Below are positions 5,019-60,807 of a DNA stretch of 64,000 bases, in pieces; the first letter of the stretch is position 1; each line of letters begins with the position of its first letter. A model generated the notes under the pieces. That model was not told the origin of the DNA, did not search any database, and saw only the letters and a list, made by a program, of their open reading frames with translations. Origin of the DNA: Bacilli bacterium (lineage in GTDB: Bacteria > Bacillota_I > Bacilli_A > ML615J-28 > CAG-313). Location of the stretch: contig JAFTPH010000026.1 in assembly GCA_017463365.1 (NCBI GenBank), forward strand, positions 620 through 64,619. The letters run 5' to 3'. The position numbers were made by a program, and so were the translations under genes.

Positions 5019-7424
5019 ATGAGTACTTATGAACATTTAAAAGTTGAAGCCAAGTGGCAAAAATACTGGAAAGAACATGAAACATTTAAAACTGATGTTT
5101 GGGATTTTTCTAAACCTAAATTCTATGCTTTAGATATGTTTCCATATCCATCAGGAGTAGGACTTCATGCGGGACACCCAGAAGGTTATACAGCAACTGA
5201 TGTAGTATCAAGAATGAAGAGAATGCAAGGTTTTAATGTTTTACATCCAATGGGATTTGACTCATTCGGACTTCCTGCTGAACAATATGCAATTAATACG
5301 GGAAATCATCCAGATGGATTTACAAAGAAGAATATTGGAACATTTAAAAACCAACTTGAAATGTTAGGTTTTTCATATGATTGGTCAAAAGAAATTTCGA
5401 CTTGTGATCCTGATTTCTATAAGTGGACACAATGGATATTTAAACAATTATTTGAAGATGGACTAGCTAAAAAAGTTGATATGCCTGTAAACTGGTGTGA
5501 AGAGCTTGGAACTGTACTTGCTAATGATGAAGTAATTGATGGTAAAAGTGAACGTGGTGGATATCCAGTGGTTCGTAAGAATATGAAACAATGGGTTATT
5601 GATATTCCTAAATATGCGGAAAAATTATTAAGTAATTTAGATAATATTGATTGGCCAGAATCTACTAAAGAAATTCAACGTAACTGGATTGGTAAATCAA
5701 TTGGAGCTCATGTTGATTTCAAAGTTGCAGGAAATGATGATGTATTTACAGTTTTCACAACTCGCTGTGATACTTTATTTGGAGCAACATATTGTGTATT
5801 ATCACCAGAACATGATCTAGTTAAAAAGATTATGACAAAAGAACAAAGTGAAGCAGTACTTGCATATATTGATGCTTGTAGTAAAAAATCTGATTTAGAA
5901 AGAACAGAACTTAATAAAGATAAAACAGGGGTATTTACTGGAGCTTATGCAATTAACCCTGCAAATGGTAAAGAAGTACCAATTTGGATTTCTGATTATG
6001 TACTTGTAAGTTATGGAACAGGGGCAATCATGGCTGTTCCAGCTCATGATGAAAGAGACTATGCATTTGCTAAAAAATTCGGTATTGATATTATTCCAGT
6101 ATTAGAAGGTGGAAATGTAGAAGAAGAAGCTTTTACTGGAGATGGATTACATATCAACTCTGATTTCTTAAATGGTTTAAATAAACAAGAAGCAATTGAT
6201 AAAATGATTGCGTTCTTAGAAGAAAAAGGTATTGGCAGCAAAAAAGTAAACTATCGTTTAAGAGAATGGATTTTTGCTCGTCAAAGATATTGGGGAGAAC
6301 CAATCCCGACTGTTACTTTTGAAGATGGAACAACTAGATCAGTTAGTGATGATGAGTTACCGGTTGTTTTACCAGAACTTGATAATTATAAACCATCTAA
6401 GTCAGGAGACTCACCACTTGCGAAAGCAACTGAATGGGTTAATGTTGAAATGGATGGTAAAAAAGGAGTTCGTGAAACATCAACAATGCCAGGTTCTGCT
6501 GGATCTAGCTGGTATTTCTTAAGATATATTGATCCAAAAAATGAGGAAACTTTTGCTGATAAAAAGTTACTAGAACACTGGATGCCTGTTGACTTATATG
6601 TAGGTGGACCAGAACATGCGGTTGGACACTTATTATATTCAAGAATGTGGATGAATTATTTATATGATAAAGGATTAGTTCCATGTGCCGAACCATTCCA
6701 AAAGTTAGTTCACCAAGGGATGATTTTAGGGTCAAATGGAATTAAAATGGGTAAAAGATTCCCTGAATATGTTGTTGATCCAAATGTTGTTGTAAAAGAA
6801 TATGGAGCAGATGCTTTACGTTTATACGAAATGTTTATGGGACCACTTGAAGCTGATAAACCATGGGATAATAATGGTATTGAAGGTAGCCGCAAATTCT
6901 TAGATCGTATTTGGCGTTTATATACTGAAGATGATAAAATCAAAGAAGAAGAAAATAAAAACTTAGAAAAGATTTATCATCAAACAGTAAAGAAAGTAAC
7001 AGAAGATTATGAAAATCTTAAATTTAATACTGCTATTGCAGCTATGATGATTTTTGTAAACGCGGTATATAAAGAAAATGTATTCCCGAAAGAATATGCA
7101 GAAGGATTTGTTAAATTATTAAATCCTTTAGCACCACATATGGCAGAAGAATTATGGGAAACAACTTTAGGTCACAACAATACATTAGCGTATGATGCTT
7201 GGCCAACATATGATTTAGAAAAAACAAAAGATGATGAAATTACTGTTGTTATTCAAATTAATGGTAAACTTCGTGATAAGGTAAGTGTAGCAGCAACAGC
7301 TTCAAAAGAAGAAATTGAAAAGGCTGCTCTAGCTACTTCAAGAGTTCAAGAATTACTTGCGGGATTAACAATTAGAAAGGTAATTGTTGTTCCTGGTAAA
7401 CTTGTAAACATTGTTGCTAATTAG
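5019..7424 (+). CDS. leuS: Leucyl-tRNA synthetase
   Basis: 801 aa with HAGHPEGY (HIGH-type) motif and class-I LeuRS architecture ([17 protein letters not shown]...). Confidence 0.95.
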
Positions 7425-49309: not shown

Positions 49310-50737
49310 ATGATGAATAGTAATGAAATTAAAGAAGAACTAAAAGTTATTCAAGAACACGAAAAATATAAAGTTGAGTTTATTTCCATGACTCATGATG
49401 GACGTGGAGTCTGTAAATTAAGTGGGATTACTATGGACGATAAACCTTTAGAAAACTACCCTATCTTTGTTGAAGGGGCTATTATTGGAGAAATTGGGAT
49501 TATCGAAATTACCCAAATGAAAAAAAGTTATGGATTAGGACAAATTGTTAGAATTTTTAATGACAAAAAAAGTCCAAATCGTGTAACTCCAAGTTGCCCA
49601 ATCTTTGGAGAATGTGGTGGATGTCAATTAATGCATTTGTCATATGAAGGACAGTTAAGTTTTAAAAAAGGAATGGTTCGTGAAACTTTACGCAAAATTG
49701 GTGGTTTTGATAAAATCCATATCAATGATGTTATTGGAATGGAAGATCCAACAAAATATCGTAATAAAGTTCAAGTTCCATTTGGAGAATTAAAGGGAAA
49801 AGCAATAAGTGGTTTCTATAAACTAAATTCTCATGAAATAATCCCTTTAACTGAATGTTCAATTCAAACTGAAGAAATGACAGAAATTGTTAAATTTATT
49901 CGTAATTTATGTAATGAATATCATATTAAAGGTTATAATGAAAAATTAAATAAAGGTGATATTCGTCACGTTTTAATTCGTGAAAGTATTAAAACAGGTG
50001 AAGTAATGGTTATTCTTATTTGTACAAAAGCAGAATATCCTGAACTTGATGAGTTAGTAAATAAGCTTGTTAAACGTCATCCACGTATTGTATCAGTAAT
50101 GATTAATGTTAATAAGTATCAAACTAATACAATTCTTGGTAATTATTTTAAAGTATTATATGGTAGAAACTATATAATTGATGAATTATGCGGTTTAAAA
50201 TTCAAAATTGGATGTCGTTCATTCTATCAAGTAAATGCATATCAAACAGAAAAACTATATAATAAAGTTTTAGAAGTTGGAGCATTTAAAGATACTGATG
50301 TAGTAATAGATGCATATTGTGGTATTGGTACAATTGGTAGTACAATTGCTAAAAAAGCAAAATATGTTTACGGTGTCGAAATAGTCGAAGAAGCCATTCA
50401 AAATGCAAAAGAAAATGCTGAAATGAATGGACTAACCAATATTGAATTTGTATGTAATAAAGCCGAAGATCAAATTAAAGAATGGGCAAAAATGGGCATT
50501 AAAGCTGATGCAATTGTCGTAGACCCTCCACGTAAAGGTTGTGAAGGAGATTTCTTAAAAACGGTTGTAGAAATGAATATTCCTAAAATTGTCTATGTTT
50601 CTTGTGATGTCGCAACCCTTGCTAGAGATTTAAAATATTTAGCTGAAAATGGATATAATGTTGGTCATATTCAACCTGTAGACATGTTCCCTCAAACAAA
50701 CCATATAGAAAATGTGGTTTGCGTAACGAAGAAATAG
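49310..50737 (+). CDS. rlmD: 23S rRNA (uracil-C5)-methyltransferase, RlmD/RumA family (TRAM + 4Fe-4S + MTase)
   Basis: TRAM-like N-terminus. Cluster cysteines CPIFGECGGCQLMHL. SAM motif DAYCGIGTIG. Catalytic ...DPPRKGC... and C-terminal nucleophile Cys region. Confidence 0.85.
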   Translation: MMNSNEIKEELKVIQEHEKYKVEFISMTHDGRGVCKLSGITMDDKPLENYPIFVEGAIIGEIGIIEITQMKKSYGLGQIVRIFNDKKSPNRVTPSCPIFGECGGCQLMHLSYEGQLSFKKGMVRETLRKIGGFDKIHINDVIGMEDPTKYRNKVQVPFGELKGKAISGFYKLNSHEIIPLTECSIQTEEMTEIVKFIRNLCNEYHIKGYNEKLNKGDIRHVLIRESIKTGEVMVILICTKAEYPELDELVNKLVKRHPRIVSVMINVNKYQTNTILGNYFKVLYGRNYIIDELCGLKFKIGCRSFYQVNAYQTEKLYNKVLEVGAFKDTDVVIDAYCGIGTIGSTIAKKAKYVYGVEIVEEAIQNAKENAEMNGLTNIEFVCNKAEDQIKEWAKMGIKADAIVVDPPRKGCEGDFLKTVVEMNIPKIVYVSCDVATLARDLKYLAENGYNVGHIQPVDMFPQTNHIENVVCVTKK

Positions 50738-50743
50738 TACATT

Positions 50744-51307
50744 ATGGATAAAAGTCAAATTATTAATAACGTATCTAAATTATTAAATGAAAATAGGTTT
50801 GAAGAAGCTAAGATGCTTATTCAAAGTGAGTATCCTCATGAACATATAGAAATTGAAAAACGATCATATACTCTTAAACAGAAAATGACTCAATTTCTTA
50901 AAGATGGTTTCATAGATAGATATACTGGACAAAGACTTGTTAATCCAGGAATGTTAAAAGTTATAACTTACTATTGTCCAAAAGAATTTCCATATGATCC
51001 TCATTGGAAAATGACCAAAACTCATATTGCTTACTGGAATTTGATACCTACTATTGATCATATTTTTCCAATTGCATTAGGAGGTATTGATGATTCTAGT
51101 AATTGGGTTACTACATCAATGAAAAATAATTCTATAAAAAATAATTATTCATTAGAGGAAATAAACTGGCATTTACACGAAAGTGGAAATTTGGATGATT
51201 GGGATGGATTAACAAAGTTATTTATTGAGATAGTTGAAAAGAATAATGATTTACTAAAAGATTCATATATAAAAAGCTGGTATAAAATTTCTAAAGATTT
51301 GATTTAA
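50744..51307 (+). CDS. HNH-endonuclease-family protein
   Basis: IDHIFPIALGGIDDSSNWVTTSMKNNSIKNN resembles the HNH core (H-N...N). Confidence 0.55.
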   Translation: MDKSQIINNVSKLLNENRFEEAKMLIQSEYPHEHIEIEKRSYTLKQKMTQFLKDGFIDRYTGQRLVNPGMLKVITYYCPKEFPYDPHWKMTKTHIAYWNLIPTIDHIFPIALGGIDDSSNWVTTSMKNNSIKNNYSLEEINWHLHESGNLDDWDGLTKLFIEIVEKNNDLLKDSYIKSWYKISKDLI

Positions 51308-51322
51308 TAAAAAATTATAAAG

Positions 51323-51352
51323 TGAAACTCCTTATTTAATAAGGGGTTTTTC
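51323..51352 (+). terminator. Terminator after the HNH gene
   Basis: AAACTCCTTAtttaaTAAGGGGTTTTTCC. Confidence 0.7.
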
Positions 51353-51476
51353 CATATAATAATAATTTTCTCACTTTTGTTTAATTGAAGTCATCATTTT
51401 GTTTATGGTAAAATATTTTAAAGAACTGTATAATGATGGTGTAACGTTACAAAAATATAATACAAGGAGATAATTA

Positions 51477-52574
51477 ATGAATTTAGGTTTAAGAATTAAA
51501 GAATTACGTATTGAACATGATTTAACTCAAGAAGATTTAGCCGAACAACTAGGAGTATCAATTCAAGCCATATCTAGATGGGAAAATAGTATTACATGTC
51601 CGGATATTTCCGTTTTACCAATACTAGCTAATATGTTTGATGTGACTGTTGATTATTTATTAGATGTAGATATTAAGAAAAAACAACAAGAAATCAATGA
51701 AATAGAGGCTAAATATAATAAGAATTGTAATGTTGGAAAAGTAGAAGATAATGAAAAATTATTGTTAGAAGGGTTAAGTAAATATCCTAATAATTGGGTA
51801 TTAAAATCATCTTTATTAGACACTTATTTTACTTATGTTTGTAGATATGAAAGAGATGATCCAAAATATCAAGAATATATAGACAAAACAATTAAATTAG
51901 GTAATGAAATATTAAATAAATGTGTTTTAGATAATAAAAGATATTTTGCTATGCAAATACTGGTATATACTTACAGATGGACTAATGAATTAGAAAAAGC
52001 CAAAGAAATTGTCAAAAAATTACCAAGTTTTTATGTAACTAATGATTGGTTATATCCAGAAGTTGTTACTGGGTTTGAAAGAATCAAAGCTGTTGAAAGA
52101 AATATAAATTCCATAGTAGAATTATTTTATAGTGCTTTAACATCAACATATGGAAGAAGAGAAGTAGGACTTAGAGCCAAAGAACTTTTAAAATTTAAAA
52201 CATTCTTAGATTTAGTATATGAAGATGGCGACTATGGATTTTATCACATAAGACTATTTGATTTATATTTTATGTGTGCTAGTGATCAAGCTCAAATAAA
52301 AAATAAAGATGAAACGCTAAAGTATTTAAATTTAGCTATTTATTATGGAGAAATTTTTGATAAAATAAAAGATGAAGGTAAAGTTATTAAACATACAAGT
52401 TTTTTAGTAGATTGTTTAGAAAACAATCCGAATAGTTGGACATTCTCAGGTGATTGTGTTGCTTTAAAAAGAGCAGTTGATTATTTAGAAAAGGATAAAT
52501 ATGATTTCTTGAGAGAAGATGAAGAGTTTAAAAAAATTAAAGAAGAGTTAATTAATAAATTGACAAATAAATAG
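51477..52574 (+). CDS. XRE-family HTH transcriptional regulator with C-terminal helical-repeat (TPR/RNPP- or Rgg-like) domain
   Basis: HTH MNLGLRIKELRIEHDLTQEDLAEQLGVSIQAISRWENS. ~300-aa C-terminal alpha-helical region. RBS AAGGAG. The 3' end is embedded in repeat copy 1. Confidence 0.8.
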   Translation: MNLGLRIKELRIEHDLTQEDLAEQLGVSIQAISRWENSITCPDISVLPILANMFDVTVDYLLDVDIKKKQQEINEIEAKYNKNCNVGKVEDNEKLLLEGLSKYPNNWVLKSSLLDTYFTYVCRYERDDPKYQEYIDKTIKLGNEILNKCVLDNKRYFAMQILVYTYRWTNELEKAKEIVKKLPSFYVTNDWLYPEVVTGFERIKAVERNINSIVELFYSALTSTYGRREVGLRAKELLKFKTFLDLVYEDGDYGFYHIRLFDLYFMCASDQAQIKNKDETLKYLNLAIYYGEIFDKIKDEGKVIKHTSFLVDCLENNPNSWTFSGDCVALKRAVDYLEKDKYDFLREDEEFKKIKEELINKLTNK

Positions 52575-52658
52575 AGATATTTTACACTAACTAAAGTATT
52601 GCTTGAGTTCATTCAAAAACCTCTTTATTGTTTTTGAAAGATAAGAATTATATAAATT
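52548..52658 (+). repeat. 111-bp direct repeat, copy 1 (regulator 3' end + promoter-like element + 9-bp inverted repeat)
   Basis: ~97% identical to 58759-58869 (4 mismatches in 111 bp). Contains TTGACA-17-TACACT and TTCAAAAAC-n9-GTTTTTGAA. Confidence 0.9.
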
Positions 52659-52725
52659 TTTTTAGATGAATAAAGTTTGTAAAATAATACTTAACTAATA
52701 AGTTCAAAATAAATAAACGAAATAC

Positions 52726-52754
52726 TTTACATTTATTATTTATTTTGATATAAT
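52726..52754 (+). promoter_or_regulatory. Near-consensus sigma-A promoter for the small peptide gene
   Basis: TTTACA (52726-31), 17-nt spacer, TATAAT (52749-54). GAAAGGAG RBS then ATG at 52798. Confidence 0.65.
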
Positions 52755-52797
52755 GACTTTAGCAAATATAAAAATTACTTGAAAGGAGTTGATTACT

Positions 52798-52863
52798 ATG
52801 AAAAATATAAATGAACATAAATTAGAAGTAATCAGTTTCTTTTGTGTAACTGTAGTTTGTTAA
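52798..52863 (+). CDS. Small peptide ORF (21 aa, MKNINEHKLEVISFFCVTVVC), a candidate signalling-peptide or RiPP-like precursor
   Basis: ATG 7 nt after GAAAGGAG. Consensus promoter upstream. Polar N-terminus and hydrophobic Cys-containing C-terminus ending in Cys. Hairpin with U-tract downstream (52896-52930). Located directly 3' of an RNPP/Rgg-like regulator and 5' of exporter genes. Not in the supplied ORF track because it is under 60 aa. Confidence 0.5.
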   Translation: MKNINEHKLEVISFFCVTVVC

Positions 52864-52895
52864 GTTTTATTAATTATAATATACTTTTAAAATTT

Positions 52896-52930
52896 AAACA
52901 CTTCTAATTTATAGGAGTGTTTTTTATTTG
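52896..52930 (+). terminator. Hairpin with U-tract between the peptide ORF and downstream genes (possible partial terminator/attenuator)
   Basis: AAACACT-tctaatttatagg-AGTGTTT followed by TTTTATTT. Confidence 0.5.
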
Positions 52931-52960
52931 CTAAATATTTAATTAGGAGATTAAAAGTAT

Positions 52961-54541
52961 ATGAATTTATTAAAAAATTATTTAGCTAAATTACATGCTC
53001 AAAATAAAAATAGAATTGATGAACTATATTTAGACAGGTTAAGTAAAATAGATGATTACAAAATATTAGAATATGAATTTTTAGGATTGAAATTTTGGTT
53101 TTTTGGAACATCTCATAGAAATCCTGAAAAACTTATTTTAAATATTGAAATTCCTAAAACATATATTAGTGATAATCTAAATACTGATAATGTAGTAGCA
53201 TTTGAACATTACGTTTTAAAAATTTTATATGAAGACGTTAATAAAATTAATGATGAATATTTTAACAAAAATAAGAGTACTAGAGAAAAGCCATATGTGG
53301 AGTCCCAAAAAACAAATGAAATTATAATTAAAAGAAATGGTATTACTTACGATTTTAAAAAGAAGGTATTTCATTATAAATTAATATTTGTTGTTCCACT
53401 TATAAATAATACTTCTATTAATGGTAAAAGTACTTTTAAGGCAATCAAAGAAATTATTTCTTTAGTATCAAAAAAATTAGAGTTTATTAACAAAGATGAA
53501 TTAAATAAAAATGTTGATATTTACTTAAAGCAACAAGAAATTAGAAGATACATTAGGGAAAATAATTTAGTTACGTTTATTGCTAATGATAGTATTTTAC
53601 CAAGAAAAGAAGGAACTAATAAACCATTAGAAGATGCAACTAAATTTATATCACCTAAGTCACTTGAAACATTAATCAAGTTAAATGATGGTACAAAGAT
53701 TTTAGGAATGGGAATTAAAAAAGGAATAACTGTTATTACTGGTGGTGGTTATTCGGGTAAAACTACTTTACTTGAAGCAATTGAAACGGGTGTATATGAT
53801 CATGAGTATGGGGATGGAAGAGAATATTGTATTACTGATGATTCTGCCATGAAGATTTGCGCTGAAGATGGTAGATATGTCACAAATACTGATATTTCAC
53901 CATTTTATAAGTATATTCCATCAAGTGAAGGGATTCATAACTTTTCAACGCAAGATGCAAGTGGAAGTATTTCACAAGCAGTAAATATTATAGAAGCAAT
54001 TAATTGTGAAAGTAAGTTACTTTTAATTGATGAAGATAGAAGTGCAACTAATTTTATGATAAGAGATTATAATATGCATTTAGTTGTGAAAAATGATCCA
54101 ATAATACCATTTACTAATAGGATTAAAGAAATCTATAATGATTATGACGCGTCAACGATATTAGTAATAGGTGGTTCAAGTGTATATTTGAATTATGCTG
54201 ATTGTGTAATTTTGTTAGAAGATTATTTGCCTAAAGATATAACTGGTTTTATTAAAGGATTAGATTTGATGAAAGTTGTAGAGGAGCCAGATAAGACAAA
54301 TTTTATATCAAAAAGAAAAATAGCTAATTTTAAATCAAAAGAAATGTTTAACTATTTTAATTTTGTTGCAAATGATAAAAGTAAAAATATTGTGATTGAT
54401 GAATATCAAGCTGATATCACGTTTATATCAACATTAATTTCAGATAGTCAAATAAACTATTTAGCTTATATAATGCAGTTAATACTATCTAGAAGTGAAT
54501 TTTGGGGTGATGATATTATTTATAGCATTATGTATAAATAA
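52961..54541 (+). CDS. Stand-alone 'ABC-class ATPase' protein (PF09818-like P-loop NTPase of unknown function)
   Basis: 526 aa, no TM. Walker A in the C-terminal half (GGGYSGKTTLLEAIETG) and Walker B-like LLLIDEDRSATNF. Long N-terminal non-ATPase region. RBS TTAGGAG. Confidence 0.6.
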   Translation: MNLLKNYLAKLHAQNKNRIDELYLDRLSKIDDYKILEYEFLGLKFWFFGTSHRNPEKLILNIEIPKTYISDNLNTDNVVAFEHYVLKILYEDVNKINDEYFNKNKSTREKPYVESQKTNEIIIKRNGITYDFKKKVFHYKLIFVVPLINNTSINGKSTFKAIKEIISLVSKKLEFINKDELNKNVDIYLKQQEIRRYIRENNLVTFIANDSILPRKEGTNKPLEDATKFISPKSLETLIKLNDGTKILGMGIKKGITVITGGGYSGKTTLLEAIETGVYDHEYGDGREYCITDDSAMKICAEDGRYVTNTDISPFYKYIPSSEGIHNFSTQDASGSISQAVNIIEAINCESKLLLIDEDRSATNFMIRDYNMHLVVKNDPIIPFTNRIKEIYNDYDASTILVIGGSSVYLNYADCVILLEDYLPKDITGFIKGLDLMKVVEEPDKTNFISKRKIANFKSKEMFNYFNFVANDKSKNIVIDEYQADITFISTLISDSQINYLAYIMQLILSRSEFWGDDIIYSIMYK

Positions 54542-54701
54542 TATTAAAATTTTAGATGAATCAATACAACAAATTATTTCACAGTATAATTTTAAGTGTG
54601 ATGTATGGTTTGACGATATACGTAAACAAGATATCATAAGTTGTATAAATAGATTAAGAGGAATTCGTTTTGAATTTATAAGTTAAAGGAGAGTGATACT
54701 G

Positions 54702-56495
54702 ATGAATTTAGATAAACCAAATATTATAAAAAACTTCTTTTACTCACTAAAGAAGATTTATAAAATTGATAAAATATTTGTTTTTGAGACTATAATACAT
54801 ACAATAATTTCTGCATTAGTTGTTTTTATGTATCCATATATATTAAAGATGGCAATAGAAGCTATTGAACAAAATTTAAGTTTTAAAGAATTAATACTAA
54901 AAGTACTTATTGTTGTAGTAAGTGTAATGATTTTAGTTTTCTTTAATCAGGCATGTTGGAGAGATCAATCTTATAGAGCGCGAAAATTATCTGCGCTATT
55001 TACAAGAGAATATCATTTAAACTCATTAAAAACTGATTATGAGAAATTTGAACAACCAGAATCACAAGATGCTTTTGAAAAAGGATCACGAGCACTAGGA
55101 ACAAGAAGTGGATTTATAGGTTTATATACAAATATGTTTACAACTATTAGTAAAGTAATTACCTTTATAATTGGTTGTGGAATAATACTAAGAGTAAGTA
55201 TTTGGTTGATAGTAATAATTGTTTTATTAGCAATTATAAAATTATTATTAACAAGTTATAATACTAAAAAAGAAAAAACAAACTTTCATGATAAAACACC
55301 TGGTATATGGAGAAAAATTAGTTATACAAATAATATATCAAAAAATTTGACAATAGGAAAAGATTTACGTATTTATGAAATGGATAAGTTTATAGATATG
55401 GAAAGACAAAAAACTATTGATGAATATATGAAACTTTATAAAAAAGAAGAAATTAGATCTAATATATTAGGCACAATAATTAATTTAATACATATATTAG
55501 ATGAAGTTGCATTATATTCATTTATGCTTTATGAAGTAATTAACAATAATATGAGTATTGCTGATTTTACTTTTATTATTGCATCAATTAGAACATTATC
55601 AAGATCGTTGACAGTTATAATAAATAATTTTAGCAATAACTTATCATATAGTTTACAGGTTAATGATTATCGAAAATTTGAAACATTAGATTTATCATTT
55701 AATGGTGATACTAAACCTCTTGTAGCAGATGAGGTAGAAATTGAATTTAAAAATGTAAGCTATAGCTACTATATGCAAGAAGGATATACACTAAAGAATA
55801 TCTCGTTTAAAATTAAGAAAGGCGAACGAATAGCACTTGTTGGTCATAATGGTGCAGGGAAAACAACTCTAATAAAACTTATTTGTGGATTTTATCATCC
55901 AACTGAAGGAGAAATCCTTATTAATGGAGTAAATATAAATGAGATAGATAGAGAAAGCTTAATAAAACTAATTGCTCCTGTTTTCCAAGATTCTAATCAT
56001 TATGCGGTCAGCATAAAAGAAAACATTGCTATGGAGACAATTGGGAATATAGATGATGAAAAATTATATATGTCACTTAATCTCGCTGGCTTATTACAAA
56101 AAATAGAAAGTTTAAAAAATGGTGTTGATACAATTATAACTCGTGATATGGATGATACAGGTGTTGAATTATCAGGTGGAGAGAGTCAAAAATTATCGAT
56201 TGCAAGAGCTATTTACAAGAATGCTCCATTTGTAATTTTAGATGAACCAACTAGTGCACTTGATCCTATAGCAGAATCTGAATTGTATATGAATTTGAAT
56301 AAAATTATTAATAATCATTCAGCTATATTTATTTCTCATAGACTTTCATCAACAAAATTTTGTGACAGAATATTCTTCTTAGAAAAAGGAGAATTGCTTG
56401 AAGTAGGCACACATAATGAATTAATGAGTATAGATAGTGAATATAAGAAACTATTTAATATGCAAGCAGAATATTATAAGGAGGTAGATGAATAA
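54702..56495 (+). CDS. ABC transporter permease/ATP-binding protein (half-transporter, exporter type), subunit 1
   Basis: N-terminal 6-TM domain. Walker A GHNGAGKTT, signature LSGGESQK, Walker B ILDEPTSALD, H-loop FISHRL. Confidence 0.85.
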   Translation: MNLDKPNIIKNFFYSLKKIYKIDKIFVFETIIHTIISALVVFMYPYILKMAIEAIEQNLSFKELILKVLIVVVSVMILVFFNQACWRDQSYRARKLSALFTREYHLNSLKTDYEKFEQPESQDAFEKGSRALGTRSGFIGLYTNMFTTISKVITFIIGCGIILRVSIWLIVIIVLLAIIKLLLTSYNTKKEKTNFHDKTPGIWRKISYTNNISKNLTIGKDLRIYEMDKFIDMERQKTIDEYMKLYKKEEIRSNILGTIINLIHILDEVALYSFMLYEVINNNMSIADFTFIIASIRTLSRSLTVIINNFSNNLSYSLQVNDYRKFETLDLSFNGDTKPLVADEVEIEFKNVSYSYYMQEGYTLKNISFKIKKGERIALVGHNGAGKTTLIKLICGFYHPTEGEILINGVNINEIDRESLIKLIAPVFQDSNHYAVSIKENIAMETIGNIDDEKLYMSLNLAGLLQKIESLKNGVDTIITRDMDDTGVELSGGESQKLSIARAIYKNAPFVILDEPTSALDPIAESELYMNLNKIINNHSAIFISHRLSSTKFCDRIFFLEKGELLEVGTHNELMSIDSEYKKLFNMQAEYYKEVDE

Positions 56496-58267
56496 TGAAA
56501 CTAAAAACAATTAAGAGAAATCTAAAATATTTTATTCCTTTACTTCTAAAGATTAGTCCAATGTCAATTATTATAATGGTATTAGTGGCATTTATAAATT
56601 CAATTAGTAATATAGCCTGGGTCGTGTTTCCAAAGTTGATATTAGATGAACTTTTTTATACAAAAAATTATGATAAATTATTCATTATTGTTATTGCATT
56701 TATTTTAATTCAATTAATATGGAGAGTATTAGGCGATATATTTAATAGTATGAATTATTATATTATACGAAAAGCAGATTTTAAAATAGATAAATTATTT
56801 AACGAAAAGATTGCTCATATTGATTACTTTCATATAGAAGATCCACAATTTAATGATGAATTAAGTTATGCGAAAAATTGTTTAAGCCAATATAGTAATG
56901 GGATTTATTCGGTAACTTGGGCAATTAAAGAATTTGTTGAAAATATAATATCAATATTAAGTGTTGTTGGAATAATTATAGCAAGTGGAGAATTCTTTAT
57001 TATACTTGTAACATTGATAGGTGTGATATTAAATACAATCTTTTATGGAAAATTTCAAAAAATAGACGAAGAGTTTAATAATGGAACAGTTCGATTTTTT
57101 AGAAAACAATGGTATTATGGCAATAGTATGATGGCATTTAGAAGTCAAAAGAATTTGAGGATGTATAGTGCAGATAATTTGATAAAAAACAGAAGTGATG
57201 AAGTAAATAATGATCTATTTAAAATAGAAGAAGAAACAAACAAAAAAAGAAATAAAGTAAGTTTATTTGAAACTAGTTTTAGCTATTTATTTACTACTTT
57301 TATAACAATAATAATTCTTGCATTTGCGGTATATTATAAAAATTTAGAATTAACTGTTTTTACAATGCTATATGGTGCAGTTCAAACACTAGATAATGGA
57401 ATTGCAAATTTAATATATTCATCAAAAAAATATTATCAAGATTGTGTTTATCAAGAAAACTTTATTAATTTAATGGAAATTGAATCTATATTTAAAGATG
57501 GTAAAAAAGCTATAGAAAATATAGAAACAATTGAATTTAAGAATGTTAGTTTCAAGTATCCAAGATGTGATTATTATGTACTCAAAAACTTAAGTTTCAA
57601 AATTGATTCTAAAGAAAAAATATCATTAGTAGGTTTAAATGGTAGTGGTAAAACAACGATAATCAAATTGATTTGTAGATTCTTTGATGTTAATGAAGGA
57701 GAAATATTAATCAATGGAGAAAACATAAAGTTATATAAATATGAAGACTATATGAAATGTTTAGCCATTGTATTTCAAGATTTTAAAATTATATCATTTA
57801 GTGTTAAAAACAATATTGCAATACTTGATGAAAATAAAGAAAAACTATATGATGTTTTAAAAAGAAGTGAAGCATTAGAAAGAATAAATGAATTACCTGA
57901 TAAAGAAAATACTTATATTAATAAATGGTTTGATAAAAAAGGTGTTGAATTCTCTGGTGGAGAACTTCAAAAATTTGCTTTGGCTAGAGCATTATATAAA
58001 GATGCAGATTTTGTTGTTTTAGATGAGCCAACAAGTGCGTTAGACCCTGTGAGTGAGTCAAAAATCTATTATCATTTCAAAGATGTTGTGGGAGAAAAAT
58101 TGACATTATTTATTTCACATAGGCTATCAAGTTGTATATTTAGTGATAAAATACTAGTACTTGATGGATATAATATTGTTGAAACTGGAACTCATGAAGA
58201 ACTTATGAAAAATAAAGAAGGCTTGTATAGAAAAATGTTTATGGCTCAAGCAGAATATTATAATTAG
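56495..58267 (+). CDS. ABC transporter permease/ATP-binding protein (half-transporter), subunit 2
   Basis: Start overlaps the previous stop (ATGA). Strong RBS AAGGAGG. Walker A GLNGSGKTT, signature FSGGELQK, Walker B VLDEPTSALD. Confidence 0.85.
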   Translation: MKLKTIKRNLKYFIPLLLKISPMSIIIMVLVAFINSISNIAWVVFPKLILDELFYTKNYDKLFIIVIAFILIQLIWRVLGDIFNSMNYYIIRKADFKIDKLFNEKIAHIDYFHIEDPQFNDELSYAKNCLSQYSNGIYSVTWAIKEFVENIISILSVVGIIIASGEFFIILVTLIGVILNTIFYGKFQKIDEEFNNGTVRFFRKQWYYGNSMMAFRSQKNLRMYSADNLIKNRSDEVNNDLFKIEEETNKKRNKVSLFETSFSYLFTTFITIIILAFAVYYKNLELTVFTMLYGAVQTLDNGIANLIYSSKKYYQDCVYQENFINLMEIESIFKDGKKAIENIETIEFKNVSFKYPRCDYYVLKNLSFKIDSKEKISLVGLNGSGKTTIIKLICRFFDVNEGEILINGENIKLYKYEDYMKCLAIVFQDFKIISFSVKNNIAILDENKEKLYDVLKRSEALERINELPDKENTYINKWFDKKGVEFSGGELQKFALARALYKDADFVVLDEPTSALDPVSESKIYYHFKDVVGEKLTLFISHRLSSCIFSDKILVLDGYNIVETGTHEELMKNKEGLYRKMFMAQAEYYN

Positions 58268-58498
58268 TTAACTATAAATTTTTGTGCTATACTATTAAAG
58301 TAAAAATGATATTAGGAGGTGCATTTATATAATTTATAGAACGTTAATTGTGTTAGTTATGATATTATTTATGATACCTCTTGTAGAGGGTAATCGAGAT
58401 AAAGAAGATATAATAGATTTTTAAATAATATAAAAAAAGGTAAGATTATTAAATATCAAAATATGTAATTAATATAAATAGTATTAAAATTTATAAAA

Positions 58499-58540
58499 TT
58501 AAGAAATGTAACTATCTTAACTGGTAGTTACATTTCTTAA
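58499..58540. repeat. Perfect 16-bp inverted repeat with 10-bp spacer in a 640-bp non-coding region
   Basis: TTAAGAAATGTAACTA-tcttaactgg-TAGTTACATTTCTTAA. Confidence 0.8.
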
Positions 58541-58758
58541 TTCTCTATTAATCTTAAAATAACTGGAAGTAAAAATGTAATGATAATTAAGATTTATAAT
58601 ATATTTCTTAATTATTAACTAATTTTATATCATTTTTAGGAGTAAAATAAAAAATAGGTATATTTAAAAATCATTAAAATAGGTGTAAATCTTTAAATTA
58701 AGAGAAAAATTATCTTGTTTATAGTATTATAAGTGTTTTCTATTACATACAAACAATA

Positions 58759-58869
58759 TTAATTAATAAATTGACAAATAAATAGAGATATTTTATACTA
58801 ACTAAAGTAGTGCTTGAGTTCATTCAAAAACCTCTTTATTGTTTTTGAAAGATAAGTATTATATAATTT
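58759..58869 (+). repeat. 111-bp direct repeat, copy 2 (carries a pseudo-3'-end ...ILINKLTNK* of a regulator gene)
   Basis: ~97% identical to 52548-52658. Contains TTGACA-17-TATACT (better -10 than copy 1) and the same 9-bp inverted repeat. Lies ~40 bp upstream of the ATG at 58911. Confidence 0.9.
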
Positions 58870-58910
58870 AAGTGTAAATGATCATTTAAATAAAATATAA
58901 GGAGAATAAT

Positions 58911-59645
58911 ATGGCTTTTAACGAACAAATACAAAAACTAAGAAAAGAATGTGGAATGACTCAAAATGAACTTGCTGAAAAACTATTTATTAGTTATCAA
59001 GCAGTAAGTCAATGGGAAAATGGTAATACAAAACCTGATATTGACTTATTACCAAAACTTGCTGAAATATTTAATGTATCAATTGATGAATTATTTGGTA
59101 GAAAAACTGTTAAATGTAATTTAACTAATGTAGAAGAAAATACTTTATATTTTGTTATTGCAACCTCAGATGAAATTATGGGAATAATGGATTTAGAAGA
59201 ATTAAAGAAAAAGCAAAATGAAGTAAAAGTTACTATTGAAGGAGATACTTTAAATGTTGTAAGTTCATCTACTGTAACTATAAAAGGTAATGTTCAAGGT
59301 AATGTTGATGCCAATCAAGATGTTAATACTTCAGCTATTGGTGGTAATGTTAGAGCAGGTTGTGATATTAATTGTGCTAATATTACAGGGAATGCTAGCG
59401 CAGGTTGTGATATTTCTTGTGCGAATATTAGTGGAAACGTTGCTGCTGGATGCGAACTTAATTGTTCGGATATTAGAGGAAATGTTTCAGTAGGTGGGAA
59501 TCTAACTTGTGAAAAAATTGAGGCTGATACTGTTAAAGCTGGCGGTATAATTTATTGTAATAAAGAAATAAAAGCTAATAAAATAGAAACTAATAATACA
59601 GTAGAGAGTAAAAATAAAACAAGTAAAATTACTATTGAAATGTAA
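58911..59645 (+). CDS. XRE-family HTH protein fused to a C-terminal Cys-rich 15-residue-repeat (beta-helix/bactofilin-DUF4097-like) domain
   Basis: HTH LRKECGMTQNELAEKLFISYQAVSQWENG. C-terminal tandem repeats GNVRAGCDINCANIT / GNASAGCDISCANIS / GNVAAGCELNCSDIR / GNVSVGGNLTCEKIE. RBS TAAGGAG. Confidence 0.75.
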   Translation: MAFNEQIQKLRKECGMTQNELAEKLFISYQAVSQWENGNTKPDIDLLPKLAEIFNVSIDELFGRKTVKCNLTNVEENTLYFVIATSDEIMGIMDLEELKKKQNEVKVTIEGDTLNVVSSSTVTIKGNVQGNVDANQDVNTSAIGGNVRAGCDINCANITGNASAGCDISCANISGNVAAGCELNCSDIRGNVSVGGNLTCEKIEADTVKAGGIIYCNKEIKANKIETNNTVESKNKTSKITIEM

Positions 59646-59648
59646 CAA

Positions 59649-59678
59649 AAGGGTATAGATTATTCTATACCTTTTCTT
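59649..59678 (+). terminator. Terminator after the XRE/beta-helix gene
   Basis: AAAGGGTATAGAttaTTCTATACCTTTTCTT. Confidence 0.8.
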
Positions 59679-59749
59679 ATATTATATTTGAATTTTTTAG
59701 TAAATAAGAGTATAATAGGTGTATATTAAAAAATAGGTGAGGAATATTT

Positions 59750-60079
59750 ATGTTCAATTTTTTATTAATAGATCCACAAACAATGGCTATATTTGCAGAA
59801 ACATTTGAAATAATTATGATATTATGTTTTGGTTTCTCATGGCCAATTTCAATTATTAAAACTTTAAAAGCCAAAACAGCGGCAGGTAAGAGTCCATTAT
59901 TTATTATTTTAATTATTACTGGGTACATCTTTGGTATCGCAAGTAAAATTATATCTGATAATATTGGTATTGCTTTTATTTTTTATTGTATTAATTTATG
60001 TACAACATCTTTTGATTTAGCATTACAATTATATTATCGTAAGAAAGATGCATTAAAAAACAAGGGGAATAATATATGA
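59750..60079 (+). CDS. Small 3-TM membrane protein, PQ-loop/SemiSWEET- or LAB_N-like (MtN3 clan)
   Basis: 109 aa with three hydrophobic helices. The ...FSWPISIIKTLKAKTAAGKS... segment resembles the PQ-loop signature. Stop overlaps the downstream start (ATGA). Confidence 0.45.
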   Translation: MFNFLLIDPQTMAIFAETFEIIMILCFGFSWPISIIKTLKAKTAAGKSPLFIILIITGYIFGIASKIISDNIGIAFIFYCINLCTTSFDLALQLYYRKKDALKNKGNNI

Positions 60080-60807
60080 AGAGTTTTGAGAAGGGAAACA
60101 TTAGGATTAAACTTGCTGAAACGAAAGAAGAATACGAAGGACTATATCGTTTAAGATATTTTGATTTATTATTAAATTACAATATCAATAATCAAAATGA
60201 TGAACAACTTGATACAGATGCATATGATAAAGTTTGTGATCATCTTATCGCAGTAGATACTAATACAAATGAAGTAGTGGGAACATATAGGATTATAAAA
60301 AAGAGCCATTTATTAGGTGAAATGCCATTTCTAACAGAAAGTGAATTTGATCTAACACCTTTAAAAAAATATGAACTAATGGAATTGGGTCGTGCGGTGG
60401 TTAAAGAAGAATATCGTGATGGTTCTGTTATTGGATTACTTTGGAGTGGCATAATTAGATACGCGATTGAAGAAAATATGGAATATATGGTTGGTACTGC
60501 TTCATTCCATGGAACAGATTATCGTGAATTTGAAGATGTATTTAGTTATTTATATCACAATAATTTATCACCAACGGAGATTAGATGTAATGTAAATCAA
60601 GATTCAGCCATTGATATGCAGATATTAAATGATTATCAAGAAGAAGTTGCTAAAAAAAATATGCCCCCTCTTATTAAAGGTTATTTGCGTTTAGGTGCAA
60701 CAATTGGTAATGGAATTTATATTGATAGAGACTTTAATAGCTTAGATGTTTTAATTGTTTTGAAAATAAGTGAAATTAATCCTAGATATTTAAAACGATA
60801 TTTATAA
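60076..60807 (+). CDS. GNAT-family N-acyltransferase of the OlsB / N-acyl amino acid synthase (Acetyltransf_5) type
   Basis: Characteristic ...PPLIKGYLRLGA... motif plus Y-R-I-I-K and G-R-A-V-V segments typical of OlsB/NAS/hemolysin-like N-acyltransferases. 243 aa. Confidence 0.7.
   Translation: MKSFEKGNIRIKLAETKEEYEGLYRLRYFDLLLNYNINNQNDEQLDTDAYDKVCDHLIAVDTNTNEVVGTYRIIKKSHLLGEMPFLTESEFDLTPLKKYELMELGRAVVKEEYRDGSVIGLLWSGIIRYAIEENMEYMVGTASFHGTDYREFEDVFSYLYHNNLSPTEIRCNVNQDSAIDMQILNDYQEEVAKKNMPPLIKGYLRLGATIGNGIYIDRDFNSLDVLIVLKISEINPRYLKRYL

Follow-up and report, generated by a model that had tools for sequence, protein, structure and literature searches.

Which gene does a promoter-like module serve when it occurs twice within 6.2 kb, and which of the two copies stands in its native place? 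This question is raised by a 111-nucleotide (nt) direct repeat in the DNA analysed here, a 64,000-nt stretch of contig JAFTPH010000026.1 from a Bacilli bacterium (positions 620 to 64,619; hereafter the window). The initial annotation had read a perfect 9-bp inverted repeat (the dyad) in each copy as a shared operator, by which one regulator might govern both a peptide cassette and a gene for a helix-turn-helix (HTH) protein of the XRE type with a beta-helix tail. We arrived at a different reading, to which we assign a probability of about 0.7: the module would be the self-regulated promoter region of the gene for the 244-amino-acid (aa) XRE/beta-helix protein, and copy 1 a recent duplicate at the site of an insertion.

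The 111-bp duplication was found at the annotated positions of both copies, which are identical at 107 of 111 nt (96%); a repeat of this length and identity cannot be chance. Alignment gave four mismatches, not the three annotated: 52585 C/T, 52599 T/G, 52646 A/T and 52656 A/T (copy 1/copy 2). An assembly artefact was excluded, as an independent ENA contig (L001) holds both copies; a Logan contig built from short reads (L002) ends exactly at copy 1. The features needed to follow the repeat and its surroundings are:

52548 to 52658, plus strand: module copy 1, the apparent duplicate, which bounds the inserted cassette on the left and is joined to the 3′ end of the gene for the 365-aa regulator.
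58759 to 58869, plus strand: module copy 2, the probable native promoter/operator region of the XRE-HTH/beta-helix gene, orthologous to the single-copy region in L003/L006, L004, L088-L093 and L087.
52548 to 52561, also 58759 to 58772, plus strand: the 14-mer TTAATTAATAAATT, homology between the regulator 3′ end and the module start, and probable crossover site.
58619 to 58758, plus strand: non-coding stretch upstream of copy 2, common to L004 (blastn, 83.7% over 312 nt including the module).
58911 to 59645, plus strand: gene for the 244-aa XRE-HTH and beta-helix (bactofilin-like) protein, the proposed binder of two sites in the module, O1 and O2 (Pfam HTH_3, E = 1e-17; AlphaFold model).
51477 to 52574, plus strand: gene for the 365-aa XRE-HTH regulator with tetratricopeptide-repeat (TPR)-like domain and RNPP-like fold (model pLDDT 94; fold matches to PlcR, ComR, PrgX and Rgg2).

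Comparison with close relatives identified the native copy. In L003 and L006, whose regulator is 87% identical to that of the window, the regulator gene is followed by one module and then directly by the 244-aa gene, and regulator and module meet there at the same junction as at copy 1. In L004 an opposite-strand Fic gene and a stretch of about 140 nt with homology to 58619-58758 intervene between the regulator gene and the single module, behind which comes the 244-aa gene; in L088 and L005 about 60 nt separate the regulator gene from the module. L087 is without the 365-aa regulator, yet it has kept the module core and the 244-aa gene. Each close relative thus has a single module, and it stands immediately before the orthologous XRE gene, a position in which the initial annotation had also placed copy 2. 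Furthermore, copy 2 holds the ancestral state at all four positions at which the copies differ. As the module is single-copy in the relatives and the flanks of copy 2 are conserved on both sides, we conclude that the module belongs natively upstream of the 244-aa gene, copy 2 being the orthologous copy. A metagenome scan with the module pattern, in which the dyad was left free, returned one further locus only, L006, of the same type as L003.

Several elements were laid out within the module and just beyond its right end:

58771 to 58799 (copy 1, 52560 to 52588), plus strand: P1, the promoter of the initial annotation, TTGACA-17-TATACT in copy 2 and TTGACA-17-TACACT in copy 1 (consensus scan).
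58801 to 58819 (copy 1, 52590 to 52608), plus strand: O1, an imperfect inverted repeat, ACTAAAG-tagtg-CTTGAGT, which is perfect in L094/L098.
58822 to 58841 (copy 1, 52611 to 52630), plus strand: O2, ATTCAAAAACCTCTTTATTG, its last three bases being the TTG of the P2 -35.
58823 to 58849 (copy 1, 52612 to 52638), plus strand: the dyad, TTCAAAAAC-n9-GTTTTTGAA, exact in both copies.
58839 to 58867 (copy 1, 52628 to 52656), plus strand: P2, the core promoter kept family-wide, TTGTTT-17-TATAAT, with TTGTTT-17-TATAAA in copy 1 (38 aligned loci).
58875 to 58888, plus strand: a perfect 14-bp palindrome, TAAATGATCATTTA, at the predicted P2 start and outside the repeat.

P1 was confirmed as annotated, including the 17-nt spacer and both -10 hexamers, and so was the overlap of its copy-1 -35 with the regulator codons K-L-T (AAA TTG ACA). 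In a scan of 9 kb, both copies of P1 came within the top four sigma-70-like matches, with scores of 10-11 out of 12, and P2 matches the consensus at 9 of 12 positions. P1 is held in place in the close clade only (TTGACA-17-TATAAT in L004, TTGCTA-17-TATAAT in L087) and is gone in L094/L098. O1 and O2 both lie within the 111-nt module, and the P2 -10 is situated at its right end. The ATTCAA-N6-CTTTATTG segment of O2 is invariant in all close and mid-distance homologues and also in L015, whose protein is 37% identical. The palindrome TAAATGATCATTTA is unique in the window at zero mismatches and is kept in L003, L004, L087, L088-L093 and L098; because it falls beyond the repeat boundary, copy 1 is without it.

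Further evidence came from the wider family. About 38 homologous loci, down to 27% protein identity, have a common layout consisting of O1, O2, a -35, 16-18 nt and a TATAAT-like -10. Of the 38 loci, 36 have the P2 -10 at 24-63 nt from the start codon; in L017 and L022 the distance is 110 and 112 nt. The layout is the same in homologues at 48-51% identity that occupy other contexts (L094 follows an aro operon and L098 a lipase gene), and in homologues at 27-41% identity from Clostridia metagenome-assembled genomes (MAGs). The latter served as an unbiased test set: they came from a protein-only scan with generic HTH patterns, among whose listed matches were only homologues at most 41% identical, all from Clostridia MAGs. 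O1 is a perfect ACTCAAGC-N3-GCTTGAGT in L094/L098 and TCAACC-N3-GGTTGA in the Clostridia homologues, and the family form of O2 is TTCAAC-N6-7-nTTTATTG, in which the final TTG is the -35. Among 35 loci picked by protein similarity alone, an O1-like repeat was present upstream in 27 (2.9 expected) and the strict O2 pattern in 15 (0.8 expected), the expectations being taken from the rest of the same loci.

The box was also found upstream of 21 of 44 genes with only the HTH domain in common, Paenibacillus species included. Since these homologues differ in their C-terminus, the box goes with the DNA-binding domain. O1 and the -35 are mostly separated by either 25-26 nt (16 loci) or 35-38 nt (9 loci), two classes one helical turn apart; this spacing fits protein binding on DNA rather than RNA structure. 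Half-site variants track recognition-helix variants, CCAAC occurring with T-N-Q-S-V-S and TCAAC with F/Y-Q-A-V-S, a pairing that is suggestive only and carries no correction for phylogeny. As expected of an operator, the inverted-repeat site lies at the regulator gene's own core promoter, O2 supplying the -35 and O1 lying 25-26 nt upstream, and it is inherited together with the regulator gene across genomes and contexts. The promoters likewise have sigma-70-type hexamers with a 16-18-nt spacer, and the position of P2 relative to the gene is conserved (that of P1 in the close clade only). Searches of the literature for XRE-bactofilin fusions or for the box sequence gave nothing pertinent. An O1-like site was also seen in L104 (about 6563-6580), where it precedes an unrelated 203-aa protein.

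The 244-aa protein is the proposed binder of these sites. Its AlphaFold model consists of an HTH plus a Cys-rich beta-helix, and the nearest solved structures to its HTH_3 domain are ImmR, the 434 repressor, P22 c2 and SinR. The bactofilin family PF04519 scored 16.1 bits on the C-terminus, below the gathering threshold of 27.9 (E = 0.014), whereas more distant homologues (P0166/P0169) passed the threshold; because the model has a beta-helix and the Pfam score is subthreshold, we call this domain bactofilin-like only. Autoregulation by the adjacent HTH protein is the simplest and, we infer, the most likely reading. The XRE/beta-helix protein would bind O1 and O2, probably as dimers on one helix face, and thereby control transcription of its own gene. 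O2 would abut P2 and supply its -35 (TTG), and the clade-specific upstream promoter P1 would fire into O1.

The second HTH protein beside the module, the 365-aa regulator, was assigned to the HTH plus TPR, RNPP type because its best solved-structure matches are PlcR (Foldseek, E = 1.6e-5), ComR, PrgX and Rgg2, at low TM-scores of 0.3-0.4. It has a candidate box of its own:

51440 to 51451, plus strand: palindrome TGTAACGTTACA, at the 365-aa regulator's own promoter.

L003-L005 carry the identical palindrome, and L101, a homologue at 54% identity in a different context, has TGTAAGCTTACA in its place; the palindrome is likely to be the autoregulatory box of the regulator family. The family palindrome TGTAAnnTTACA has a single exact match in the window, at 51440-51451, and none in the module. 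We noted in addition that the 12-bp palindrome TGTAA(C/G)(G/C)TTACA stands just downstream of a TGTATAAT extended -10, before the regulator gene, in the window, L003, L004, L005 and L101. As the regulator has its own palindrome, which is absent from the module, and as the module persists in L087 without the regulator, the 244-aa protein is the better candidate for the module sites. No further exact copies of TAAATGATCATTTA, TGTAAnnTTACA or TCAAC-N5-GTTGA were found within the 64-kb window, and matches to these with one or two mismatches were found neither in the module nor beside the cassette; additional regulon members are not visible in the 64 kb by these patterns. A peptide gene adjoining the regulator was found in none of the relatives at 87-88% and 54% identity. 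The regulator and the peptide of the window were also considered as an RNPP quorum-sensing pair, which we rejected as the default because the relatives are without the peptide and the peptide region behaves like a leader/attenuator.

On the plus strand the genes run in the order HNH protein, 365-aa XRE-HTH gene, copy 1, 21-codon open reading frame (ORF), ABC_ATPase, two ABC exporters, about 490 nt of non-coding DNA, copy 2, 244-aa XRE-HTH gene and terminator. The interval from rlmD to the 244-aa XRE gene (window 50744-58911, compared with L003, L004, L005 and L087) is variable among close relatives, and depending on the genome contains an HNH gene, two small ORFs (180 and 139 aa), the 365-aa regulator, a Fic gene or the ABC cassette. 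In the window the accessory cassette comprises the following:

52693 to 58267, plus strand: the whole cassette, with leader promoter, leader ORF, terminator, frameshifted ABC_ATPase and two ABC exporters.
52726 to 52754, plus strand: leader promoter, TTTACA-17-TGaTATAAT (promoter scan).
52798 to 52863, plus strand: leader ORF of 21 codons (MKNINEHKLEVISFFCVTVVC), starting 140 nt past copy 1.
52896 to 52922, plus strand: leader terminator (terminator scan).
52961 to 54541, plus strand: ABC_ATPase gene (PF09818), frameshifted relative to the 570-aa homologue P0235.
54693 to 56495 and 56495 to 58267, plus strand: ABC exporter genes (ORF and domain reading).

Copy 1 had been described as standing directly in front of a peptide cassette. 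This description does not hold, as 140 nt lie between copy 1 and the ORF, which is equipped with a promoter and a terminator of its own. The cassette is not present between the regulator and the XRE gene in L003/L006, L004 or L088, and it occurs in other contexts in L104, L105 and L107, the last of which has the leader and ABC_ATPase without the exporters. The leader promoter, ORF and terminator of L104/L105 are 91% identical to those of the window, and the 49 nt of contig available there upstream of the leader promoter and homology boundary are unrelated to the module. Judged by these arrangements, we consider the cassette to be independent of the module, and the 21-codon 'peptide' ORF looks like a leader or attenuator of the ABC_ATPase gene.

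Several further observations concern the cassette. It is a mosaic, in that the leader and ABC_ATPase (52693-54706) are 91% identical to L104/L105 DNA and the exporter genes (54707-58267) match L104 in patches only, at 69-76%. Relative to P0235, residues 1-522 of the ABC_ATPase (52961-54686) are encoded in the frame 52961-54538 and residues 523-570 in the next frame, 54540-54683; this may reflect either a pseudogene or an error in the MAG assembly. Within the leader, the ORF bases AAATTAGAAGT (52819-52829) are perfectly complementary to ACTTCTAATTT in the 5′ arm of the terminator (52900-52910), giving a long-range helix that is part of the minimum-energy fold. The segment containing the ribosome-binding site and start codon, GGAGTTGATTACT, can pair with the ORF-internal AGTAATCA. 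Both pairings are kept in L107 (4700-4870), where the C-terminus of the peptide differs (MNNLINKLEVINSYIIKHF); the leader fold has z = -6.2. The C-terminal half of the leader peptide is invariant in L104 (1-320) and L105. A 13-bp perfect inverted repeat, TCAAAATAAATAA-n19-TTATTTATTTTGA (52704-52748), brackets the -35 of the leader promoter; it is unique in the window but not conserved in L104/L105, and was dropped as a candidate operator.

The state of copy 1 agrees with a secondary origin. None of the copy-1 bases at the four mismatches occurs in the five relatives compared, and all four changes are hence derived on the copy-1 side. Two weaken a -10 hexamer by consensus, changing TATACT to TACACT in P1 and TATAAT to TATAAA in P2. 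O1 and O2 are intact in copy 1, the sole change there being in the O1 loop. Copy 1 is probably a weak or decaying promoter and at most an extra binding site for the same XRE protein. Copy 1 and copy 2 differ by four substitutions, compared with five between copy 2 and L003, and a window-specific G is common to both copies (52601/58812). From these counts and the shared G we conclude that the duplication or gene conversion is younger than the split from L003.

A trace of the event was found beyond the cassette:

58423 to 58498, plus strand: relic of the regulator 3′ tail and its native flank (74% over 84 nt to L004 8011-8093, E = 2e-8).

The relic is homologous to the final 28 nt of the regulator gene in L004 together with the 3′ flank of that gene, and includes a 21-nt identical run. 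Moreover, the regulator 3′ end and the module start have in common the 14-mer TTAAT(T/A)AATAAATT; L004 carries TTAATAAATAAATT at both places, and the L003 and copy-1 junctions both fall within it. The derived changes, the tail relic and the 14-mer together indicate that copy 1 and the cassette (about 52562-58422, ~5.9 kb) are an insertion at the 14-mer into an L004-like backbone, and the L003-type genomes appear to be the same locus minus the segment between the repeats. Copy 1 would have been made, or kept similar, by recombination at the 14-nt homology, and the same rearrangement would have put the ~5.9-kb cassette between the 365-aa regulator and the XRE gene. The pathway may have been a Campbell-type insertion at the 14-mer, or an older duplication followed by gene conversion. 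Two side observations touch this region. On two short contigs (L089 1-130 and L091 1-40) the sequence upstream of the module ends in ACAAATAGAGATAAC, like the P1 spacer of the window, ACAAATAAATAGAGATA; this end may be a truncated piece of a second module, hinting at repeated recombination at that spot. The non-coding DNA between the last ABC gene and copy 2 contains an 18-bp perfect inverted repeat, AATTAAGAAATGTAACTA-n10-TAGTTACATTTCTTAATT (58492-58547), extendable to 23 nt at 91%, and L004 has a bidirectional terminator and the Fic gene at roughly this place.

The dyad could itself be the operator of a neighbouring dimeric XRE regulator and so join the peptide/ABC unit and the XRE/beta-helix gene. 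It is indeed a perfect 9-bp dyad with a 9-nt loop in both copies, downstream of the P1 -10 as annotated (at 23 nt instead of some 25 nt); it has only these two matches in the window even when up to three mismatches are allowed, its left arm lies within the conserved O2, and HTH proteins are encoded beside both copies. Of 5000 dinucleotide shuffles of the module, only 3.7% gave an equally long or longer perfect inverted repeat (≥9 bp, loop 3-15 nt), which makes the dyad on its own only mildly unusual. However, the right arm erodes fast: it reads GTTTTTGAG in L003, GTTTTTGGA in L088/L004, GAAAATATT in L087, GTTTTATTC in L098 and GAATATATT in L094, and matches at 8/9 in L003 and L088, at 7/9 in L004 and essentially not at all in L087, L094 and L098. 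The left arm and 'loop' are kept down to 37%-identical homologues, and the two arms are neither conserved nor co-varying in the orthologous regions. As the right arm diverges while the left arm and loop are kept, dyad symmetry is not the conserved property, and the dyad is best described as the left half of O2 plus lineage-specific bases of the P2 -35, which falls in the loop and right arm, and of the P2 spacer. The separate palindrome of the 365-aa regulator, the peptide unit's own promoter and terminator, and the lack of a module in the 49 nt available upstream in L104/L105 also argue against a dyad operator, which we consider decidedly unlikely; more generally, one regulator over both units is possible, with the evidence leaning against it. 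Action of the dyad in RNA, as terminator of the regulator gene or as a 5′-leader hairpin of P1 transcripts, is highly improbable. The copy-2 leader does fold stably (-21.1 kcal/mol, z = -3.4), and the stretch from the regulator gene to the next unit contains no other terminator, but the hairpin alone reaches only -7.1 kcal/mol (z = -1.6), and neither copy 1 nor L004 (z = -1.5) nor L087 (z = -0.6) preserves the leader fold, with no compensatory changes. Most family members have a single promoter, with O1 and O2 upstream of it and therefore not transcribed. In place of the G+C-rich stem and U tract of an intrinsic terminator there are 2 G-C pairs and no T run, and the terminator scan was silent, so that here the initial annotation was right not to regard the dyad as a canonical terminator. 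An Rfam scan of 50500-60500 at E ≤ 1 gave no relevant match.

The remaining alternatives concern copy 1. It might be functional wiring that places the ABC cassette, or read-through from the regulator gene, under the XRE/beta-helix protein, i.e. regulon expansion by operator duplication. The intact O1 and O2 are consistent with this idea, as is the lineage-specific G in both copies, which suggests gene conversion or a very recent origin; copy 1 also lies between the cassette and the regulator gene, for which the terminator scan gave no terminator here. Nevertheless, copy 1 has weakened -10 hexamers in both promoters and no start-site palindrome, conservation of the cassette promoter does not depend on the module, and the frameshifted ABC_ATPase hints at a decaying cassette, and we regard such wiring as doubtful. 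A bolder proposal, which seems to us a long shot, is that a TCAAC-N-GTTGA / TTCAA-N7-TTTATTG double operator is the cognate site of a large, so far uncharacterised XRE subfamily across Bacillota, many members ending in a bactofilin-like, polymer-forming beta-helix, with the sites in helical phase bridged by beta-helix oligomerisation and the duplicate capturing the ABC cassette into the regulon. If true, this locus would be a case of regulon growth by operator duplication caught in progress. Finally, copy 1 may be a recombination scar or substrate and nothing else, with a 6.2-kb segment between the direct repeats that homologous recombination can add or remove. The structure of L003/L006, which is that of the window minus the inter-repeat segment and with a single module, points this way, as do the regulator-tail relic past the cassette, the 14-nt homology at the junction and the breakage of assemblies at the repeat. 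Against it, no recombinase or transposase was found in or beside the repeat-bounded segment, whose ORFs are the leader, the ABC_ATPase and the two ABC exporters. We hold this to be possible, though improbable as a complete account: it explains the origin of copy 1 and not the role of copy 2, and is compatible with a self-regulated promoter region at copy 2.

That self-regulated promoter region remains our preferred explanation, and several points weigh against it. O1 is imperfect in the clade of the window, with a match of 7/8, and four loci have an O1 to -35 distance of 29-30 nt, off the helical phasing. Consensus matches of the sigma-70 type are not in excess in the region (72, with 82 expected from shuffles). 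The finding of all four changes on one copy has p of about 0.06-0.12, too few changes to prove decay, and gene conversion, which the shared G may reflect, may keep copy 1 similar and could do so because copy 1 has a function. The conserved box could instead belong to another widely conserved factor. Taken together with the evidence above, the promoter and operator-like sites of the initial annotation stood and an XRE-type binder is plausible, whereas the symmetry that matters, the promoter that is conserved and the proposed control of the peptide unit did not.

The repeat is best annotated as a native promoter-operator and a young paralogous copy at the junction of an insertion, not as a shared box in the style of quorum sensing. 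A by-product is a candidate cis-element (O1, O2 and a fixed core promoter) for widespread, unstudied XRE regulators with a beta-helix tail, which provides a defined DNA probe for binding studies and a means to search regulons. Because the cassette lies between 111-nt direct repeats, it is predicted to be unstable and deletable by homologous recombination, and such deletion would explain strain-to-strain differences at the locus.

Among known systems, the module most resembles the promoters of autoregulated Cro/CI-type (XRE) repressors such as those of phage 434, P22 c2, B. subtilis SinR and ICEBs1 ImmR. The 244-aa protein is like these in its N-terminal HTH_3 domain, and the module is like their promoters in having inverted-repeat sites on or just upstream of the regulator's own -35, with two sites in helical phase. 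It differs in its half-site (TCAAC/GTTGA type, here CTAAAG/CTTGAG), which matched no described operator in literature searches, in the C-terminus of the protein, a Cys-rich beta-helix instead of a dimerisation or peptidase domain, and in the absence of a phage or integrative and conjugative element context at the module locus. RNPP regulators (PlcR box, ComR box, Rgg/SHP) resemble the locus in that the 365-aa neighbour has the HTH plus TPR fold. In ComRS the same box is duplicated before a peptide gene (comS) and a regulator gene (comX), which is the logic that had been proposed for the repeat. Unlike these systems, the family palindrome TGTAAnnTTACA of the 365-aa regulator does not occur in the module, its relatives are without an adjacent peptide gene, and the 'peptide' here looks like a leader ORF or attenuator of the ABC_ATPase. 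A Rho-independent terminator would share the position of the stem-loop downstream of a stop codon, but the module stem is AT-rich, with 9 bp, 2 G-C pairs, a 9-nt loop, no U tract and -7.1 kcal/mol. As at islets gained by recombination between direct repeats, the 6.2-kb segment between the 111-nt repeats is missing in the nearest relatives, in which one repeat is left. In contrast to such islets, no integrase, transposase or att-like core is present here, the repeat appears to be a promoter region, and the crossover seems to have used a 14-nt AT-rich homology. Set beside these systems, the module reads as an ordinary kind of element accompanied by a recent duplicate.

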